From Escherichia coli (GTDB lineage Bacteria; Pseudomonadota; Gammaproteobacteria; Enterobacterales; Enterobacteriaceae), in assembly GCF_003334355.1 (NCBI RefSeq), contig NZ_QOWP01000017.1: a DNA stretch of 64,000 bases; one strand, written 5' to 3'. The notes below the pieces were generated by a model. It was not told the origin of the DNA. It was given only the letters and a program-made list of their open reading frames with translations, and searched no databases. The translations under genes were made by a program, and so were the position numbers. Shown here one piece after another: positions 10,201-54,980 of this stretch (position 1 is its first letter; the number at the start of each line of letters is the position of its first letter).

Positions 10201-10424
10201 GCCGGATGCGGCGCGAGCGCCTTATCCGGCCTACGGGTCGGCAACAGTTGTAGGCCTGATAAGACGCGACAGCGTCGCATCAGGCATTGATTGCCGGATG
10301 CGGCACAAGTGCCTTATCCGGCCTACAGGTCGGCAATAGTTGTAGGCCTGATAAGACGCGACAGCGTCGCATCAGGCATTGATTGCCGGATGCGGCGCGA
10401 GCGCCTTATCCGGCCTACGGGTCG
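10201..10424. repeat. BIME cluster: about 2.4 tandem copies of a 92-bp unit, each holding two inverted REP palindromes
   Basis: Unit gccggatgcggcgcgagcgccttatccggcctacgggtcggcaacagttgtaggcctgataagacgcgacagcgtcgcatcaggcattgatt begins at 10201, 10293 and 10385. Confidence 0.9.
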
Positions 10425-17884: not shown

Positions 17885-18718
17885 TTAATTGCTCAAACGC
17901 TGCGGATGGGTATAAACCGTTGCCCGACCCGGTTTACAAAAACCTACCAGTGTCAGATTACAGCGCTCAGCCACTTCTACAGCAAGCGTGGTCGCGGCAG
18001 ACACCGCAAACAAAATCTCTACGCCGCACATCGCCGACTTTTGCACCATTTCATAACTGGCACGACTGGAAACCAGTACCGCACCTTGCTGCCAGCTTTC
18101 CCCTTCTTGTGACCGGCGGCCTAACAGTTTGTCCAGCGCCACATGGCGACCCACGTCTTCATGCCCGCCGACCAGTTCGCCAGATGGCAACATCCAGGCA
18201 GCGGCGTGAGTACAACCAGTCAGTTGCCCCACTGGCTGAAAATCGTTGAGATGACGTAATGCATCATCCAGTTTGTTGAGATCAAACGTCTGGGTGAACG
18301 GTAGCGGCTGCACCGGTTTTCCGATGTCATTAAGTTGCTCCACGCCGCATACGCCACAGCCCGTACGTCCCGCCAGCGCCCGGCGGCGCTCCTTCAACCC
18401 CATAAAGCGGCGGCTGGAAAGCTCAATTTGTACTTCAAGACCATTACAGGAAGGAACGACATCCATGCCGAAGATATCGCGCGGACTTTCGATAATCCCC
18501 TCGGAAAGCGAAAAACCGAGCGCAAAGTACTCAAGGTCTTTGGGCGACGCCATCATCACCACATGCGAAATGCCGTTGTAGACCAGCGCAACGGGAACTT
18601 CTTCCGCGACCTCATCTAACCGTGGGTGTTGTAAATCATCACGCCGCCATAACTCAATTTGACGAACACCTGTGATATTTGTCACATTTTCGATTTCTTT
18701 TCGCTGTGTTTTTTTCAC
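17885..18718 (-). CDS. fdhD: Formate dehydrogenase sulfurtransferase/accessory protein FdhD
   Basis: 277-aa ORF, divergent from fdoG, matches FdhD. Confidence 0.9.
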
Positions 18719-18911
18719 TTTCTCTTAACCAGATAAGAACACACACACCAACATTATGGTATTCTGTTACAAACCCTTCCTGGATGGAGGGAAATTGAGC
18801 CAATTCTGGACCTTTGCGGCCCCTTCCGCAAAGAAAAATAACTCCCACTCCCTGCACACGCAGCAAGCGAATGTAAATGGGACGTGACAATGTCGAAACA
18901 AGGAGCAATCC

Positions 18912-21900
18912 ATGCAGGTCAGCAGAAGGCAGTTCTTTAAGATCTGCGCTGGCGGTATGGCAGGCACCACGGCAGCGGCACTGGGTTTTGCACCCAGCGT
19001 AGCACTCGCGGAAACCCGGCAGTATAAACTGCTGCGCACCCGCGAAACCCGTAATACCTGCACCTATTGTTCCGTAGGCTGTGGGCTGTTGATGTACAGC
19101 CTCGGTGACGGAGCAAAAAACGCCAAAGCATCTATCTTCCATATCGAAGGCGATCCGGATCACCCGGTCAACCGCGGTGCACTTTGTCCGAAAGGCGCTG
19201 GCCTGGTGGATTTCATCCACTCCGAAAGCCGTCTGAAGTTTCCGGAATACCGTGCGCCAGGTTCTGATAAATGGCAGCAAATCAGTTGGGAAGAGGCGTT
19301 TGATCGCATCGCCAAACTGATGAAAGAAGACCGCGATGCTAACTACATTGCGCAAAACGCCGAAGGCGTGACTGTTAACCGCTGGCTCTCCACCGGGATG
19401 CTGTGTGCTTCCGCGTCGAGTAACGAAACCGGCTATTTAACGCAAAAATTCTCCCGCGCGCTGGGTATGCTCGCGGTCGACAACCAGGCGCGTGTCTGAC
19501 ACGGACCAACGGTAGCAAGTCTTGCTCCAACATTTGGTCGCGGTGCGATGACCAACCACTGGGTCGACATCAAGAACGCCAACCTCGTCGTGGTGATGGG
19601 CGGTAACGCCGCTGAAGCTCACCCGGTCGGGTTCCGCTGGGCGATGGAAGCCAAAATTCACAACGGCGCGAAGCTGATTGTGATCGATCCTCGCTTTACG
19701 CGTACGGCGGCGGTAGCTGACTACTATGCCCCTATTCGTTCCGGTACTGACATTGCTTTCCTGTCAGGCGTATTGCTGTACCTGCTGAACAATGAAAAAT
19801 TCAACCGCGAATACACCGAAGCCTATACCAACGCCAGCCTGATCGTGCGTGAGGATTACGGCTTTGAAGATGGCCTGTTCACCGGCTACGACGCGGAAAA
19901 ACGCAAGTACGATAAATCCTCCTGGACTTATGAACTGGACGAAAACGGCTTCGCCAAACGCGATACCACGCTGCAACATCCGCGCTGCGTGTGGAACTTG
20001 CTGAAACAGCACGTTTCCCGCTACACGCCAGATGTGGTTGAAAACATCTGTGGTACGCCAAAAGACGCGTTCCTGAAAGTCTGCGAATACATCGCAGAAA
20101 CCAGTGCTCACGATAAAACTGCCTCGTTCCTGTATGCCCTCGGCTGGACGCAACACTCCGTTGGTGCGCAAAACATTCGTACGATGGCGATGATCCAGCT
20201 GCTGCTCGGCAATATGGGGATGGCAGGCGGCGGCGTTAACGCCCTGCGCGGTCACTCCAATATTCAGGGGCTGACGGACCTGGGGCTGCTGTCGCAGAGC
20301 CTGCCAGGTTACATGACGCTGCCAAGCGAGAAGCAGACCGATCTGCAAACCTACCTTACCGCCAACACGCCAAAACCGCTGCTGGAAGGCCAGGTAAACT
20401 ACTGGGGCAACTACCCGAAATTCTTCGTCTCTATGATGAAGGCCTTCTTTGGTGATAAAGCGACGGCGGAAAATAGCTGGGGCTTTGACTGGTTGCCGAA
20501 GTGGGATAAAGGCTACGACGTCCTGCAATACTTCGAGATGATGAAAGAGGGCAAGGTCAATGGCTATATCTGCCAGGGCTTTAACCCTGTTGCCTCATTC
20601 CCGAACAAAAACAAAGTGATCGGTTGTCTGTCGAAACTGAAGTTCCTCGTCACCATCGACCCACTGAACACTGAAACCTCTAACTTCTGGCAGAACCACG
20701 GTGAGCTGAACGAAGTTGACTCGTCGAAGATCCAGACCGAAGTGTTCCGTCTGCCATCGACCTGCTTCGCGGAAGAGAACGGTTCTATCGTTAACTCAGG
20801 TCGCTGGTTACAGTGGCACTGGAAAGGTGCGGACGCCCCGGGGATTGCGCTGACTGACGGCGAGATCCTCTCCGGTATCTTCCTGCGCTTGCGCAAGATG
20901 TATGCCGAACAGGGTGGCGCGAACCCGGACCAGGTGCTGAACATGACATGGAACTACGCCATTCCGCATGAGCCATCTTCAGAAGAAGTGGCGATGGAGA
21001 GCAACGGTAAGGCGCTGGCCGATATTACCGATCCGGCAACCGGTGCGGTTATCGTCAAGAAAGGCCAACAACTTAGTTCGTTCGCCCAATTGCGCGATGA
21101 CGGTACAACCTCCTGTGGCTGCTGGATTTTCGCCGGTAGCTGGACGCCGGAAGGCAACCAGATGGCACGCCGTGATAACGCCGATCCGTCTGGCCTCGGT
21201 AACACGCTGGGCTGGGCATGGGCATGGCCGCTTAACCGCCGCATTCTGTATAACCGCGCCTCCGCAGATCCGCAGGGTAACCCGTGGGATCCGAAGCGTC
21301 AGTTGCTGAAATGGGACGGCACTAAGTGGACCGGCTGGGATATTCCGGACTACAGCGCAGCGCCTCCGGGTAGCGGCGTCGGGCCGTTTATCATGCAGCA
21401 GGAAGGCATGGGGCGTCTGTTTGCCCTCGATAAGATGGCGGAAGGTCCGTTCCCGGAACACTACGAGCCGTTTGAAACGCCGCTGGGAACTAACCCGCTG
21501 CATCCAAACGTTATCTCGAACCCGGCTGCACGTATCTTTAAAGACGACGCCGAAGCATTGGGTAAAGCCGATAAGTTCCCGTATGTCGGAACCACCTATC
21601 GTCTGACCGAGCACTTCCACTACTGGACCAAACACGCGCTGTTGAACGCGATTTTGCAGCCAGAGCAGTTTGTGGAAATCGGGGAGTCGCTGGCGAATAA
21701 ACTTGGCATTGCCCAGGGCGATACCGTGAAAGTCTCCTCCAACCGTGGCTATATCAAAGCCAAAGCGGTGGTGACCAAACGTATTCGCACGCTGAAAGCG
21801 AACGGCAAAGATATCGATACCATCGGTATTCCGATTCACTGGGGCTATGAAGGCGTAGCTAAAAAAGGCTTTATTGCCAATACTTTAACGCCATTCGTTG

Positions 21901-21962
21901 GTGATGCGAACACGCAGACGCCGGAGTTTAAGTCCTTCCTTGTGAATGTGGAAAAGGTGTAA
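18912..21962 (+). CDS. fdoG: Formate dehydrogenase-O major subunit (selenoprotein; in-frame UGA = Sec at 19497..19499)
   Basis: Track ORFs 18912..19499 and 19548..21962 are in the same frame, separated only by TGA; combined 1016 aa; Tat signal (RRQFFK), Fe-S cysteine cluster, molybdopterin-oxidoreductase domain. Confidence 0.95.
19497..19560 (+). other. Selenocysteine recoding site: UGA codon plus downstream SECIS-like hairpin
   Basis: TGA followed by cacggaccaacggtagcaagtcttgctcc...; apical stem agcaag/cttgct resembles the fdhF SECIS layout. Confidence 0.75.
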
Positions 21963-21974
21963 CGGAGACGACAT

Positions 21975-22877
21975 ATGGCTTATCAATCTCAAGATATCAT
22001 TCGTCGTTCCGCGACTAACGGTCTGACCCCCGCGCCTCAGGCGCGGGACTTCCAGGAAGAAGTGGCGAAACTCATCGACGTTACCACCTGTATCGGCTGT
22101 AAAGCCTGTCAGGTGGCGTGTTCAGAGTGGAACGACATTCGCGATACCGTCGGCAATAACATTGGGGTGTACGACAACCCCAATGATTTAAGCGCCAAAT
22201 CGTGGACGGTAATGCGCTTCTCGGAAGTGGAGCAGAACGACAAACTGGAATGGCTGATCCGCAAAGACGGCTGTATGCACTGTTCCGATCCAGGCTGCCT
22301 GAAAGCGTGCCCGGCGGAAGGTGCAATTATTCAGTATGCCAACGGTATCGTCGACTTCCAGTCCGAGCAGTGCATTGGCTGCGGTTATTGCATTGCGGGC
22401 TGTCCGTTCGACATTCCGCGCCTCAACCCGGAAGACAACCGCGTCTACAAATGTACGCTGTGCGTTGACCGCGTGGTGGTTGGGCAAGAACCAGCCTGCG
22501 TGAAGACCTGCCCAACGGGCGCGATTCACTTCGGTACGAAAGAGTCGATGAAAACGCTGGCGAGCGAGCGCGTTGCTGAGCTGAAAACCCGCGGTTACGA
22601 CAATGCGGGTCTGTACGATCCGGCAGGCGTCGGTGGTACACACGTCATGTACGTGCTGCACCATGCTGACAAGCCAAATCTGTATCATGGCTTGCCGGAG
22701 AACCCGGAAATCAGCGAAACCGTGAAATTCTGGAAAGGCATCTGGAAACCGCTCGCGGCTGTTGGCTTTGCGGCTACCTTTGCGGCCAGTATCTTCCACT
22801 ACGTGGGTGTCGGTCCGAACCGTGCGGATGAGGAAGAGAATAATCTGCACGAAGAGAAAGACGAGGAGCGCAAATGA
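21975..22877 (+). CDS. fdoH: Formate dehydrogenase-O iron-sulfur subunit
   Basis: 300-aa ORF with multiple CxxCxxCxxxCP ferredoxin motifs and a C-terminal TM helix. Confidence 0.95.
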
Positions 22878-23509
22878 AACGACGTGACACCATCGTGCGC
22901 TACACCGCGCCGGAACGTATCAACCACTGGATCACCGCCTTCTGCTTCATCCTGGCGGCGGTGAGCGGGCTGGGCTTTTTGTTCCCGTCCTTCAACTGGT
23001 TGATGCAAATCATGGGCACACCGCAGCTGGCGCGAATTCTGCACCCGTTTGTCGGCGTGGTTATGTTTGCCTCGTTCATCATCATGTTTTTCCGTTACTG
23101 GCATCACAACCTAATCAATCGGGATGATATCTTTTGGGCGAAGAATATTCGTAAGATCGTCGTCAACGAGGAAGTAGGTGACACCGGGCGTTATAACTTC
23201 GGTCAGAAATGCGTTTTCTGGGCGGCGATTATTTTCCTGGTTCTGCTGCTGGTGAGCGGCGTGATTATCTGGCGTCCTTATTTTGCGCCTGCTTTCTCAA
23301 TCCCGGTGATCCGATTCGCGTTAATGCTGCATTCATTTGCCGCAGTGGCGTTAATTGTGGTTATCATGGTGCATATCTACGCCGCCCTTTGGGTGAAAGG
23401 CACGATTACCGCCATGGTGGAAGGATGGGTTACCAGCGCCTGGGCGAAGAAACATCACCCGCGCTGGTACCGTGAGGTCCGCAAGACAACGGAAAAGAAA
23501 GCTGAATGA
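22874..23509 (+). CDS. fdoI: Formate dehydrogenase-O cytochrome b556 subunit
   Basis: 211-aa ORF, 4-TM hydrophobic protein; start overlaps the fdoH stop. Confidence 0.95.
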
Positions 23510-24435
23510 GTATTCGCATAATCCCGCAAGATGAGCTGGGTTCAAGCGAGAAACGTACGGCGGATATGATTCCGCCGTTATTGTTCCCTCGGCTCAAGAA
23601 TTTATACAACCGCCGCGCCGAGCGTCTGCGCGAGCTGGCAGAAAATAATCCTCTGGGTGATTACCTGCGCTTTGCTGCGCTTATCGCCCACGCCCAGGAA
23701 GTGGTGCTGTACGACCATCCGCTGGAGATGGATCTGACTGCGCGCATTAAAGAAGCCAGCGCACAAGGCAAGCCCCCGCTGGATATTCACGTTCTGCCGC
23801 GTGATAAGCACTGGCAAAAGCTGCTGATGGCGCTGATTGCTGAGCTGAAACCTGAAATGAGCGGCCCGGCGCTGGCAGTGATTGAGAATCTGGAGAAGGC
23901 ATCGACTCAGGAGCTGGAAGATATGGCCAGCGCGCTGTTTGCCTCTGATTTCTCGTCCGTCAGCAGCGATAAAGCGCCGTTTATCTGGGCTGCACTGTCG
24001 CTCTACTGGGCGCAGATGGCCAATCTGATCCCCGGCAAAGCCCGCGCTGAATACGGCGAGCAACGTCAATATTGCCCGGTTTGTGGTTCTATGCCGGTGT
24101 CCAGCATGGTGCAAATTGGCACCACTCAGGGGCTACGTTACCTGCACTGCAACCTGTGTGAAACTGAATGGCACGTAGTGCGCGTAAAATGCAGCAACTG
24201 CGAGCAGAGCGGCAAACTGCATTACTGGTCGCTGGATGACGAACAGGCCGCGATTAAAGCCGAAAGCTGCGATGACTGCGGCACTTACCTGAAAATTCTC
24301 TATCAGGAAAAAGATCCAAAAATCGAAGCCGTAGCAGATGACCTCGCCTCTCTGGTACTGGACGCACGAATGGAGCAAGAAGGCTATGCCCGCAGTTCCA
24401 TCAACCCGTTCCTGTTTCCGGGTGAAGGAGAGTAA
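23506..24435 (+). CDS. fdhE: Formate dehydrogenase formation protein FdhE
   Basis: 309-aa ORF with CxxC pairs ([27 protein letters not shown]); start overlaps the fdoI stop. Confidence 0.95.
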
Positions 24436-44286: not shown

Positions 44287-44452
44287 TGTTTAATCCTTTT
44301 GGTTTAAACCAGATGAAGCATCTTACGCTTACGCCAAAAAAGAAAGCAATTAACGGTGTATGACTTTGCAGATAATTGTGACAAAGCTCTCTATTGACGT
44401 AATCACAGACTTATAAGGGAGATACTCGCATTGGTGTGCGCTCACGACAGGT

Positions 44453-44485
44453 AAAAAAAAACCTGCCAGCGATGGCAGGTTTTTT
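44453..44485 (-). terminator. Rho-independent terminator of typA (symmetrical A/T tracts, possibly bidirectional)
   Basis: aaaaaaaaa cctgccagcgatggcagg tttttt. Confidence 0.7.
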
Positions 44486-44502
44486 ATAACTAAAAAACGA
44501 AA

Positions 44503-46326
44503 TTAATCGTCTTTCGGTGCGCGGTTAGCGCGACGACGATCGTTTTCCGTCAGGTGACGTTTACGAATACGGATAGAGGTTGGAGTCACTTCTACCAGTT
44601 CGTCATCATCGATGAACTCCAGAGCTTGTTCCAGAGTCATGCGGATAGGCGGAACCAGAACAACGGCTTCGTCAGTACCGGAAGCACGCATGTTGGTCAG
44701 TTTCTTACCGGTCAGGCAGTTTACCGTCAGGTCGTTAGAGCGGCTATGAATACCGATAATCTGACCTTCGTAAACTTCTGCACCGTGACCGAGGAACAGC
44801 TTACCGCGATCCTGCAGACCGAACAGCGCGAACGCGACCGCTTTACCCTGACCGTTAGAGATCAGTACGCCGTTCTGACGCTGGCCCACTTCACCCGGAC
44901 GTACGTCGTCGTAGTGGCTGAAGGTGGAGTACAGCAGACCAGTACCGGAAGTCATGGTCATGAACTCAGAACGGAAGCCAATCAGACCACGGCTTGGGAT
45001 CACGTAGTCGAGACGTACGCGGCCTTTACCGTCTGGATTCATGTTTTTCAGGTCGCCTTTACGTTCGCCCAGCGCCTGCATCACAGAACCCTGATGCTGT
45101 TCTTCAACGTCCAGCGTCACGTTTTCATACGGCTCTTGTTTACGACCGTCGATTTCACGGAAGATTACTTTCGGACGGGATACCGCCAGTTCGAAACCTT
45201 CACGACGCATGTTTTCGATCAGAACAGACAGGTGCAGTTCGCCACGACCAGAAACGCGGAACGCATCGGCGTCTTCGGTTTCTTCTACGCGCAGCGCAAC
45301 GTTGTGTACCAGTTCTTTGTTCAGACGATCCAGGATCTGACGAGACGTTACGAACTTACCTTCTTTACCGCAGAACGGCGAGGTGTTAACGCAGAAGAAC
45401 ATAGAAACGGTCGGCTCATCAACGGAGAGTGCCGGCAGCGCTTCAACGTTTTGCGTGTCGCAAACGGTGTCAGAAATGTTCAGTTCGCCCAGGCCCGTGA
45501 TCGCCACGATATCGCCAGCTTCCGCCAGGTCGGTTTCGATACGTTCCAGACCGAGGTGGCCCAGCACTTTACCGACTTTCGCGTTGCGGGTTTTGCCTTC
45601 GCTATCGATGATAGTGACCTGCTGGTTCGGCTTCACTTTACCGCGCTTGATGCGGCCAATGCCGATAACGCCAACATAGCTGTTGTAATCGAGCTGAGAA
45701 ATCTGCATCTGGAACGGACCGTCAAGGTCAACGTCCGGCGCAGGAACGTGGTCAACAATCGCCTGGTACAGCGGGGTCATGTCTTCCGCCATATCTTCGT
45801 GGTCCAGACCCGCGATACCGTTCAGCGCAGAAGCGTAAACGATCGGGAAGTCCAGCTGCTCGTCGGTCGCGTCGAGGTTAACGAACAGATCGAATACCTG
45901 ATCCACAACCCAATCAGGACGCGCGCCAGGGCGGTCAACTTTGTTGATAACAACAATCGGCTTCAGGCCGTAAGCAAACGCTTTTTTGGTTACGAAGCGC
46001 GTTTGCGGCATCGGGCCGTCAAATGCGTCAACCACCAGCAGCACTGAGTCTACCATGGACATTACACGTTCAACTTCACCACCGAAGTCGGCGTGCCCCG
46101 GGGTATCAACGATGTTGATACGGTAATCATTCCATTTGATAGCGGTGTTTTTCGCGAGGATGGTAATCCCACGCTCTTTCTCCAAATCGTTGGAGTCCAT
46201 CACGCGCTCTTGGGTTTCGGCACGAGAGTCGAACGTACCGGATTGTTGGAGCAGCTTGTCTACCAGGGTGGTTTTACCATGGTCTACGTGCGCGATGATG
46301 GCGATATTACGCAATTTTTCGATCAC
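44503..46326 (-). CDS. typA: Ribosome-associated translational GTPase TypA/BipA
   Basis: 607 aa; G-motifs [18 protein letters not shown]. Confidence 0.95.
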
Positions 46327-46469
46327 AACTTTGCCTCAGGCATTAGAAATAGCGCGTTATTGTACACGGATTAATCGCACTACAAAACAGGATCACAAAC
46401 ATCCTCCGCAAACAAGTATTGCAGAGTCCCTTTGTGATCGCTTTCACGGAGCATAAAAAGGGTTATCCA

Positions 46470-46620
46470 AAGGTCATTGCACCAACATGGTGCTTAATGT
46501 TTCCATTGAAGCACTATATTGGTGCAACATTCACATCGTGGTGCAGCCCTTTTGCACGATGGTGCGCATGATAACGCCTTTTAGGGGCAATTTAAAAGTT
46601 GGCACAGATTTCGCTTTATC
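46470..46620 (+). promoter_or_regulatory. glnA control region: NtrC binding sites and sigma-54 promoter glnAp2
   Basis: NtrC-type dyads ttgcaccaacatggtgct, ttggtgcaacattcacatcgtggtgcagcc, ttgcacgatggtgcgcat; sigma-54 -24/-12 element tggcacagatttcgct at 46600..46615. Confidence 0.85.
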
Positions 46621-51099: not shown

Positions 51100-51203
51100 T
51101 GCCGGATGCGGAGAAAGTCGTAGGCCTGATAAGACGCGACCAGCGCCGCATCAGGCACCATGCTCAGATGCCTGATGCGGCGTAAACGCCTTATCCGGCC
51201 TAC
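51100..51203. repeat. REP/BIME cluster (three REP palindromes) between yshB and hemN
   Basis: gccggatgcggagaaagtcgtaggcctgataagacgcgaccagcgccgcatcaggca...gatgcctgatgcggcgtaaacgccttatccggcctac. Confidence 0.8.
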
Positions 51204-53386: not shown

Positions 53387-53452
53387 AATGGTTCGTCTTT
53401 TAGCCGTTTTATTCAGTATAGATTTGCGGCGGAATCTAACAGAAAGCAAGCA

Positions 53453-53697
53453 AAGAAAAAAGGCGACAGATTACTCTGTCGCCTTTTTTCCTGACTCATA
53501 ACCCTTAACGGGTCTTACAATCCTTGCAGGCCGCCAACACACCCTGTTTTTCCTTTAGCCGGAACAATCCGTGTTGATTCCATTTCCGTTTAATTACGTC
53601 TCCGGACGTTTGTCTTCCTGACAATCCTCTGTCTTCGCCTCCTGGCGCTCCTGACCCTCATCCTGAGTCATTGTTCCTGTTAGCGTCCTCGCTCTAT
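53453..53697 (-). ncRNA. csrC: CsrC small RNA (CsrA-sequestering)
   Basis: Minus-strand sequence begins atagagcgaggacgctaacaggaacaatgactcaggatgagggtcaggagcgccaggaggcgaagacagaggattgtcaggaagac..., has multiple GGA motifs and ends in terminator ggcgacagagtaatctgtcgcc plus U-run; matches CsrC as I recall it. Confidence 0.9.
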
Positions 53698-54725: not shown

Positions 54726-54834
54726 TAAAAAACGCCCCAGTCATTACTGACTGGGGCGGCTAAAATATTCAGCCAAATCCGATTACGTGAAGTAAAAGGT
54801 CTGAAAGATAGAACATCTTACCTCTGTACCCTAC
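54726..54834 (-). ncRNA. spf: Spot 42 small RNA
   Basis: Minus strand reads gtagggtacagaggtaagatgttctatctttcagaccttttacttcacgtaatcggatttggctgaatattttagccgccccagtcagtaatgactggggcgtttttta, the 109-nt Spot 42 sequence as I recall it, including its terminator. Confidence 0.92.
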
Positions 54835-54980
54835 GCGACTAACTTTACTCTTTTTTGTTCAGTTCAGAAAGCACTTTTTGTAATTTTTTTTCAGTTGTTG
54901 CATAGGAATTTCTAATAGCCATCACAAAACGTGACAGCTTATGTTGCTTACTTACGAAAAAAGGCATGTTCAGGCGAATC

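Follow-up and report, generated by a model that had tools for sequence, protein, structure and literature searches.

The in-frame UGA codon of Escherichia coli fdoG and the hairpin that follows it

Formate dehydrogenase genes with an in-frame UGA

Escherichia coli has three classical selenoproteins, among them FdoG. The described systems closest to the FdoG gene are fdnG, which encodes the alpha subunit of formate dehydrogenase-N (FDH-N), fdhF, which encodes formate dehydrogenase-H (FDH-H), and those FdnG/FdoG enzymes that have cysteine in place of selenocysteine (Sec). In fdnG, as in fdoG, the UGA is codon 196 and lies in the motif ARV-U-HGPTVASLAPTFGRGAMTNHW, and the SECIS element, a member of the Rfam family SECIS_3 (RF01989), scores 84.3 bits. 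The SECIS of fdhF belongs to another family, SECIS_2 (RF01988; 87.1 bits). Its UGA is embedded in ARV-U-HGP, as is that of fdoG, and its minihelix likewise opens with GGU (the U being bulged) 11 nt past the UGA and carries G-U in its loop; the fdhF apex, GGUUGCAGGUCUGCACC, forms a 4-bp stem with a GGUC loop, whereas the fdoG apex is GGUAGCAAGUCUUGCUCC. The 11-nt spacing between UGA and minihelix we take to be a requirement of the E. coli fdhF SECIS, and the 18-nt minihelix is the part needed by SelB. Unlike FdoG, the fdhF product is a cytoplasmic protein of 715 aa with Sec at residue 140. The Cys-type enzymes are collinear with FdoG and share its flanking motifs (QARV-C-HGPTV...FGRGAMTN), but their genes carry TGC or TGT in place of TGA and lack the downstream hairpin; examples come from Shewanella, Snodgrassella, Vogesella and Selenomonadaceae (loci L022, L029, L063, L080, L082 and L094).

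Bacterial SECIS elements are located inside the open reading frame (ORF), directly 3' of the UGA, and SelB touches their bulged bases and terminal loop (PMC11881835). SelB-GTP with Sec-tRNA(Sec), positioned on the SECIS, brings this tRNA to the UGA in the A site, competing with release factor 2 (RF2) (PMC8124441, PMC11881835). The fdoGHI genes give rise to the membrane-bound formate dehydrogenase-O (FDH-O), which contains a catalytic Sec (PMC8124441).

The gene analysed here occupies positions 18912..21962 on the plus strand of the window (the whole 64,000-nt stretch of DNA under analysis) and consists of 1016 codons, Sec196 included, followed by a stop codon, as assigned from its translation, RefSeq and the NCBIfam equivalog model TIGR01553. 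E. coli K-12 MG1655 is 100% identical over a 3.2-kb region, which was found in 5426 of 5426 complete E. coli genomes, and at the equivalent MG1655 position RefSeq annotates a single CDS (WP_010723259.1) corresponding to 18912-21962. The record NZ_CP032667.1 also showed 100% identity to the tested parts of the window, fdoG among them. According to the RefSeq annotation of the identical MG1655 region, the remainder of the operon (fdoH, fdoI and fdhE) extends over 21975..24435 on the plus strand, and fdhD, which encodes an accessory sulfurtransferase for formate dehydrogenases, is found at 17885..18718 on the minus strand.

Because fdhD is located divergently upstream and fdoH, fdoI and fdhE downstream, the locus is fdo and not fdn. 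Unlike fdoG with its fdoGHI-fdhE operon and divergent fdhD, fdnG has a locus of its own in the same genome, fdnGHI, near narZ and adhP, and the two coding sequences share just 77.5% nucleotide identity over the first 1200 nt. Operon context and identity to K-12 therefore establish the gene as fdoG, the catalytic (alpha) subunit gene of FDH-O, and an earlier note on this DNA, which had named it as a known selenoprotein gene, was correct. In the PGAP annotation the fdoG CDS appears as 'fdnG', with 'formate dehydrogenase-N subunit alpha' as its product, because the naming is drawn from the shared equivalog model TIGR01553, against which FdoG scores 1574.6 bits (cut-off 814.2).

The split frame and the residue at position 196

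Translation of 18912-21962 in one frame gave 1016 residues with a sole internal stop, at codon 196, in addition to the terminal stop. This codon is the TGA at 19497..19499 on the plus strand (positions 19490-19499 read gcgtgtcTGA), exactly as stated in the earlier note, which had described an otherwise continuous 1016-codon frame split at this point. The note had also remarked that naive ORF calling breaks the gene in two, and the ORF list indeed contains an ATG-initiated N-terminal fragment of 195 aa (18912..19499, plus strand), which ends at the TGA, and a C-terminal fragment of 804 aa (19548..21962, plus strand), which begins at Met213 in the same frame. The 195-aa fragment contains an N-terminal Cys cluster and the twin-arginine motif SRRQFFK, which probably acts as a Tat signal. 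Between the TGA and Met213 lie 16 codons (HGPTVASLAPTFGRGA), the protein sequence of which is conserved.

Such halves are frequent in protein databases. Entries that start at MTNHWVDIKNAN (Met213) include P0032, P0034 (264 members), P0036 and P0040 (349 members, 'formate dehydrogenase-O major subunit, partial'), and P0018 is an N-terminal half, ending in ...AVDNQARV. Some of the halves of FdoG type carry the names 'hypothetical protein' or 'partial'. Gene calling that treats TGA as a stop yields the 195-aa and 804-aa pieces, which represent a common annotation artefact, and a 2026 preprint describes mycobacterial annotations with the same split (fdhA and fdoG). The Sec codon and SECIS of fdoG are a textbook case, already known, and nothing in them is biologically new; the locus is a good positive control for pipelines that detect stop-codon recoding.

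The protein sequence runs without a break across the UGA. The match of FdoG to TIGR01553 extends over residues 2-1015 (profile positions 1-1009), and the FdnG structure 1kqf aligns with FdoG residues 1-460 without interruption (E = 8e-272), so the frame is collinear with its homologues both before and after the TGA, a point on which the earlier note had let its interpretation depend. The first 460 residues also align with Sec-containing Desulfovibrio enzymes, with FdhF, and with Cys-type enzymes such as 6tg9. The UGA of fdoG lines up with codon 196 of fdnG and codon 140 of fdhF, each a UGA within ARV*HGP. The 1kqf residue aligned to FdoG residue 196 is the non-standard residue X196, the Sec of that structure.

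To read the aligned codon more widely and without bias, one genome per species from about 100,000 species genomes was scanned with the coding pattern FGRGAMTN, and the codon 36 nt upstream was recorded. Among the matches listed (at least 122 sites), this codon was TGA in 111 cases, TGC in 6 and TGT in 5; no other codon, and in particular no TGG (Trp), occurred at the aligned position in these 122. The alignment with Sec or Cys that the earlier note had proposed as a check is thus seen throughout, in fdnG, fdhF, 1kqf and all 122 listed sites. Metagenomic protein homologues of 63-70% identity have Cys at the Sec position (QARLCHGPTV).

A few database homologues, P0004, P0045 and P0052, have Gly or Trp in place of Sec, P0052 having W at the protein level. 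Gene calling under another genetic code was considered as their origin and is wrong for P0004, the contig of which has a true GGA codon at the Sec position, with an intact SECIS-like hairpin downstream.

The hairpin downstream of the UGA

The earlier note had placed a bacterial SECIS directly past the UGA, and the covariance-model search agreed. Rfam SECIS_3 (RF01989) matched 19494..19552 on the plus strand, lower stem included, with 84.3 bits, above the gathering score of 63; the match covers model positions 1-59 of 59 (E = 1.8e-19, or 1.4e-18 for the whole window) and adjoins the UGA inside the continuous coding frame 18912-21962. Against SECIS_2 (RF01988), the fdoG element scored just 28.1 bits, the gathering score being 70. 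The comparison with the fdnG and fdhF elements that the note had recommended showed that the same 59 nt (GUCUGACACGGACCAACGGUAGCAAGUCUUGCUCCAACAUUUGGUCGCGGUGCGAUGAC) are present in fdnG, and fdhF has the related SECIS_2. The matches point to an fdnG-type SECIS in fdoG, related to the fdhF type and distinct from it.

In the minimum free energy (MFE) fold, a spacer of 11 nt (19500..19510, plus strand), which doubles as the 5' arm of the lower stem, separates the UGA from an apical minihelix at 19511..19528 on the plus strand, which is also part of the Rfam consensus structure. The base of the minihelix is formed by the pairs G19511-C19528 and G19512-C19527, followed by a bulged U19513, and its apex by a 5-bp stem (A19514-A19518 with U19522-U19526) that closes a loop of G19519, U19520 and C19521. 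The lower stem pairs approximately 19499-19509 with 19534-19544. The earlier note had described the apex as an agcaag/cttgct stem. Both arms of this inverted repeat are real (agcaag at 19514-19519 and cttgct at 19521-19526, with t19520 alone between them), but all six pairs cannot form, because the gap between the arms is only 1 nt, and the apex is instead the 5-bp stem with its GUC loop. With its bulged U, its loop G-U and a spacing of about 11 nt, the hairpin has the features by which SelB would be expected to recognize it.

The folding energy of 19497-19545 was unexceptional in comparison with dinucleotide shuffles (z = -1.45, with 19 of 200 shuffles as stable), as was that of 19494-19552 (z = -0.77, 39 of 200). 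Thermodynamic stability was consequently dropped as evidence for the hairpin, and since stability is near the level of the shuffles, the significance of the element rests on the covariance-model match and on comparative data.

For the comparative analysis, those distinct TGA-bearing sequences among the matches listed that have HGP or HAP as their motif, 46 in number, were placed in an ungapped alignment. Pairing in the upper helix reaches 96% in these sequences, compared to 31-50% when the partners are slid. Double-sided changes were found at three of its seven pairs (21-33, 22-32 and 24-30), the variants being G-C / A-U / C-G, G-C / U-G, and A-U / C-G. The covariation score of the whole structure was 0.236, compared to 0.118 ± 0.008 in shuffles, none of 500 of which reached it, and to 0.048-0.092 in the slid-partner controls. 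The complete 7-bp helix is present in 40 of the 46 sequences and a GUY loop in 45, and the bulged U does not vary in any of them.

The lower stem is 80% paired in the Rfam register and 84% in that of the E. coli MFE fold, whose 3' side is offset by one base from the Rfam consensus, and the covariation of this stem is weak. This part of the structure thus appears poorly defined, with a register that is ambiguous between the two versions.

Among the 11 Cys-codon homologues in the matches listed, by comparison, neither the full helix (0/11) nor the GUY loop (0/11) is found, and 55% of the upper-helix cells are paired. Such a tie between hairpin and TGA is the signature that would be expected of an RNA element existing solely to recode UGA.

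Another 45 sequences with TGA are of Desulfovibrio or Firmicutes type, with an HSA, HSS or HSP motif, and have a hairpin that is placed differently; this is a different SECIS flavour.

Decoding of the UGA and the block shared with fdnG

Taken with the continuous frame, these observations make it almost certain that the UGA at 19497-19499, as codon 196 of fdoG, is recoded to Sec co-translationally by means of the 3' SECIS. The genes selA and selB and that for tRNA-Sec are annotated in NZ_CP032667.1, all of them outside the window. For the mechanism we draw on established knowledge, from which we infer that SelB binds, that it competes with RF2 and that Sec196 has a role at the metal. The mRNA hairpin 3' of the UGA would act as a bacterial SECIS, with its minihelix at 19511-19528, and SelB carrying Sec-tRNA(Sec) would bind it via the loop G-U and the bulged U. 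When the UGA enters the A site, the tethered SelB would deliver Sec-tRNA(Sec) in competition with RF2, and translation would then continue to give the catalytic subunit of 1016 residues. Sec196 would be its active-site residue and, by homology to the FdnG structure, is presumably a molybdenum ligand.

Conceivably the UGA is not read by Sec-tRNA(Sec) and is instead decoded, for instance, by a near-cognate Trp-tRNA or through misincorporation of Cys, so that residue 196 is not Sec. Low-level read-through of UGA does occur in E. coli, and homologues with Cys at position 196 exist and are presumably active. The synonymous sites, however, bear the marks of a SelB-type SECIS at the canonical position: the U of the Ser/Gly codon and the G at the third position of the Thr codon are each invariant in 46 of 46 TGA sequences and variable among the Cys-type homologues, the Thr third position being so among the 11 Cys-codon sequences. 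Read-through by another tRNA is unsupported, because the synonymous sites preserve a canonical element of SelB type; the absence of TGG from the 122 listed sites (the W of P0052 is known at the protein level) and the presence of selA, selB and selC also speak against it, and we consider this reading very improbable.

That the TGA is a genuine stop, leaving fdoG as a pseudogene or as two polypeptides of 195 and 804 aa with an incidental hairpin, agrees with the two ORFs of mechanical calling, the many database halves and a hairpin no more stable than shuffles, but has next to no probability and is excluded, because the TGA is conserved (the surrounding 111-nt region is present in 5426 of 5426 complete E. 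coli genomes, with at least 99% identity in 5423 of 5434 E. coli records, and the listed TGA sites span many phyla, Cys codons being the only alternatives), because the 16 codons up to Met213 are conserved as protein, and because the hairpin covaries and is coupled to the TGA; the 804-aa ORF, moreover, begins at an internal Met within a conserved domain, a curated SECIS model matches, and the Sec machinery is present.

Around the UGA, fdoG and fdnG are more alike than elsewhere in their first 1200 nt. The two genes share a perfect-identity run of 71 nt (alignment columns 583-653), or 86 nt with one mismatch, whereas the next longest run is 22 nt and third-position identity is 56% over the first 1200 nt. 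From codon 195 to codon 217, 21 of the 21 degenerate conserved codons are identical, against a background codon identity of 0.58, and the identity reaches past the 18-nt minihelix. The block might reflect an additional constraint, such as a functional lower stem or pausing signal or a regulatory role for the SECIS, or else repeated gene conversion between fdoG and fdnG, although any of these seems unlikely. The sum of protein-level and SelB-binding constraints would be a sufficient explanation: purifying selection under this joint protein and RNA constraint suffices because 48 nt of the block are identical across genera of Enterobacterales. For the same reason gene conversion is not needed as a cause, although it may have contributed. 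These 48 nt are found unchanged at loci of Citrobacter, Photorhabdus, Providencia, Yersinia, Enterobacter, Superficieibacter and E. albertii.

Identity and extent of the conserved UGA/SECIS block

The CDS at 18912-21962 (+) is named 'fdnG, formate dehydrogenase-N subunit alpha' by RefSeq/PGAP in all E. coli genomes listed, a label that coincides with that of the shared model TIGR01553. The operon context shows that the gene is nevertheless fdoG, since it is adjoined by fdoH, fdoI, fdhE and the divergent fdhD. A match to the Rfam family RF02778, 'FdoG-1 5' UTR thermometer' (18705-18941, (+); 36.4 bits, E-value 2.7e-6), spans the intergenic region between fdhD and fdoG together with the beginning of fdoG; it falls below the gathering score of 50.

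Alignment of fdoG with its paralogue fdnG revealed perfect identity over 71 nt at the UGA/SECIS (window 19494-19564; fdnG locus L002, 9558-9616), extending to 86 nt if one mismatch is allowed, in contrast to an overall nucleotide identity of 77.5% between the two genes. A 48-nt portion of this block is also unchanged in several further Enterobacterales genera. In these alignments, the synonymous sites of fdoG and fdnG are frozen well past the 18-nt SelB minihelix (19511-19528). The lower SECIS stem in E. coli is formed by 19499-19509 with 19534-19544, in a register one base off the Rfam SECIS_3 consensus; forcing the E. coli sequence into the Rfam register introduces A-C and A-G mismatches. 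No strong covariation was detected in the lower stem in either register among the 46 aligned TGA-bearing relatives with HGP or HAP motifs.

Other SECIS types, extra copies and substitutions at the Sec position

A different downstream hairpin was found in 45 distinct homologues of the Desulfovibrio, Geobacter and Firmicutes types (loci L007-L125), all with a TGA and the motif HSA, HSS or HSP. This hairpin, exemplified by GCGGCUCU-GGC-AGAGUCGU, starts a few nucleotides further 3'; the SECIS architecture is different, with the protein family unchanged.

Additional gene copies were also observed. Locus L111 carries two FdnG/FdoG-type genes on the same strand, each with a TGA and a SECIS that differs slightly between the two (ACC AAC versus ACC UAC; ARV versus ARI). 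An fdnG-like gene is present on a few E. coli plasmid records, with a UGA/SECIS region ~95% identical to that of the window (7 places in all, for example 197017-197123 of the 298,830-bp E. coli record NZ_CP159530.1), suggesting that the selenoprotein gene also has plasmid-borne copies.

In an FdnG-like gene on a metagenome-assembled contig (L128, 601-1794; JAQFVI010000411.1), the Sec position is occupied by GGA (Gly), followed by an intact SECIS-type hairpin, GGTGGCAGGTCTTGCCCC. The C-terminal part of this gene is rearranged, and the probable explanation for the gene is either decay or an error in assembly or sequencing. Among the database protein entries, the residue at the Sec position is G in homologue P0045 and W in P0052.

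Other features of the window

The other Rfam matches above the gathering score lie at 53444-53697 (-), 54726-54844 (-), 46408-46515 (-), 44450-44518 (-), 1331-1408, 10253-10415 and 51123-51200. The families represented are CsrC, Spot 42, ES222, STnc370 and several copies of naRNA4 (a REP-type repeat), all of which are ordinary E. coli K-12 features. RefSeq also annotates two small pseudogene fragments as 'hypothetical protein'; one of them is incomplete and the other carries a frameshift. The first lies at 25820-25936 (-), while the second (record ~71839-72005, window ~53506-53672) is probably a spurious CDS call on an sRNA gene, because it overlaps the CsrC region.
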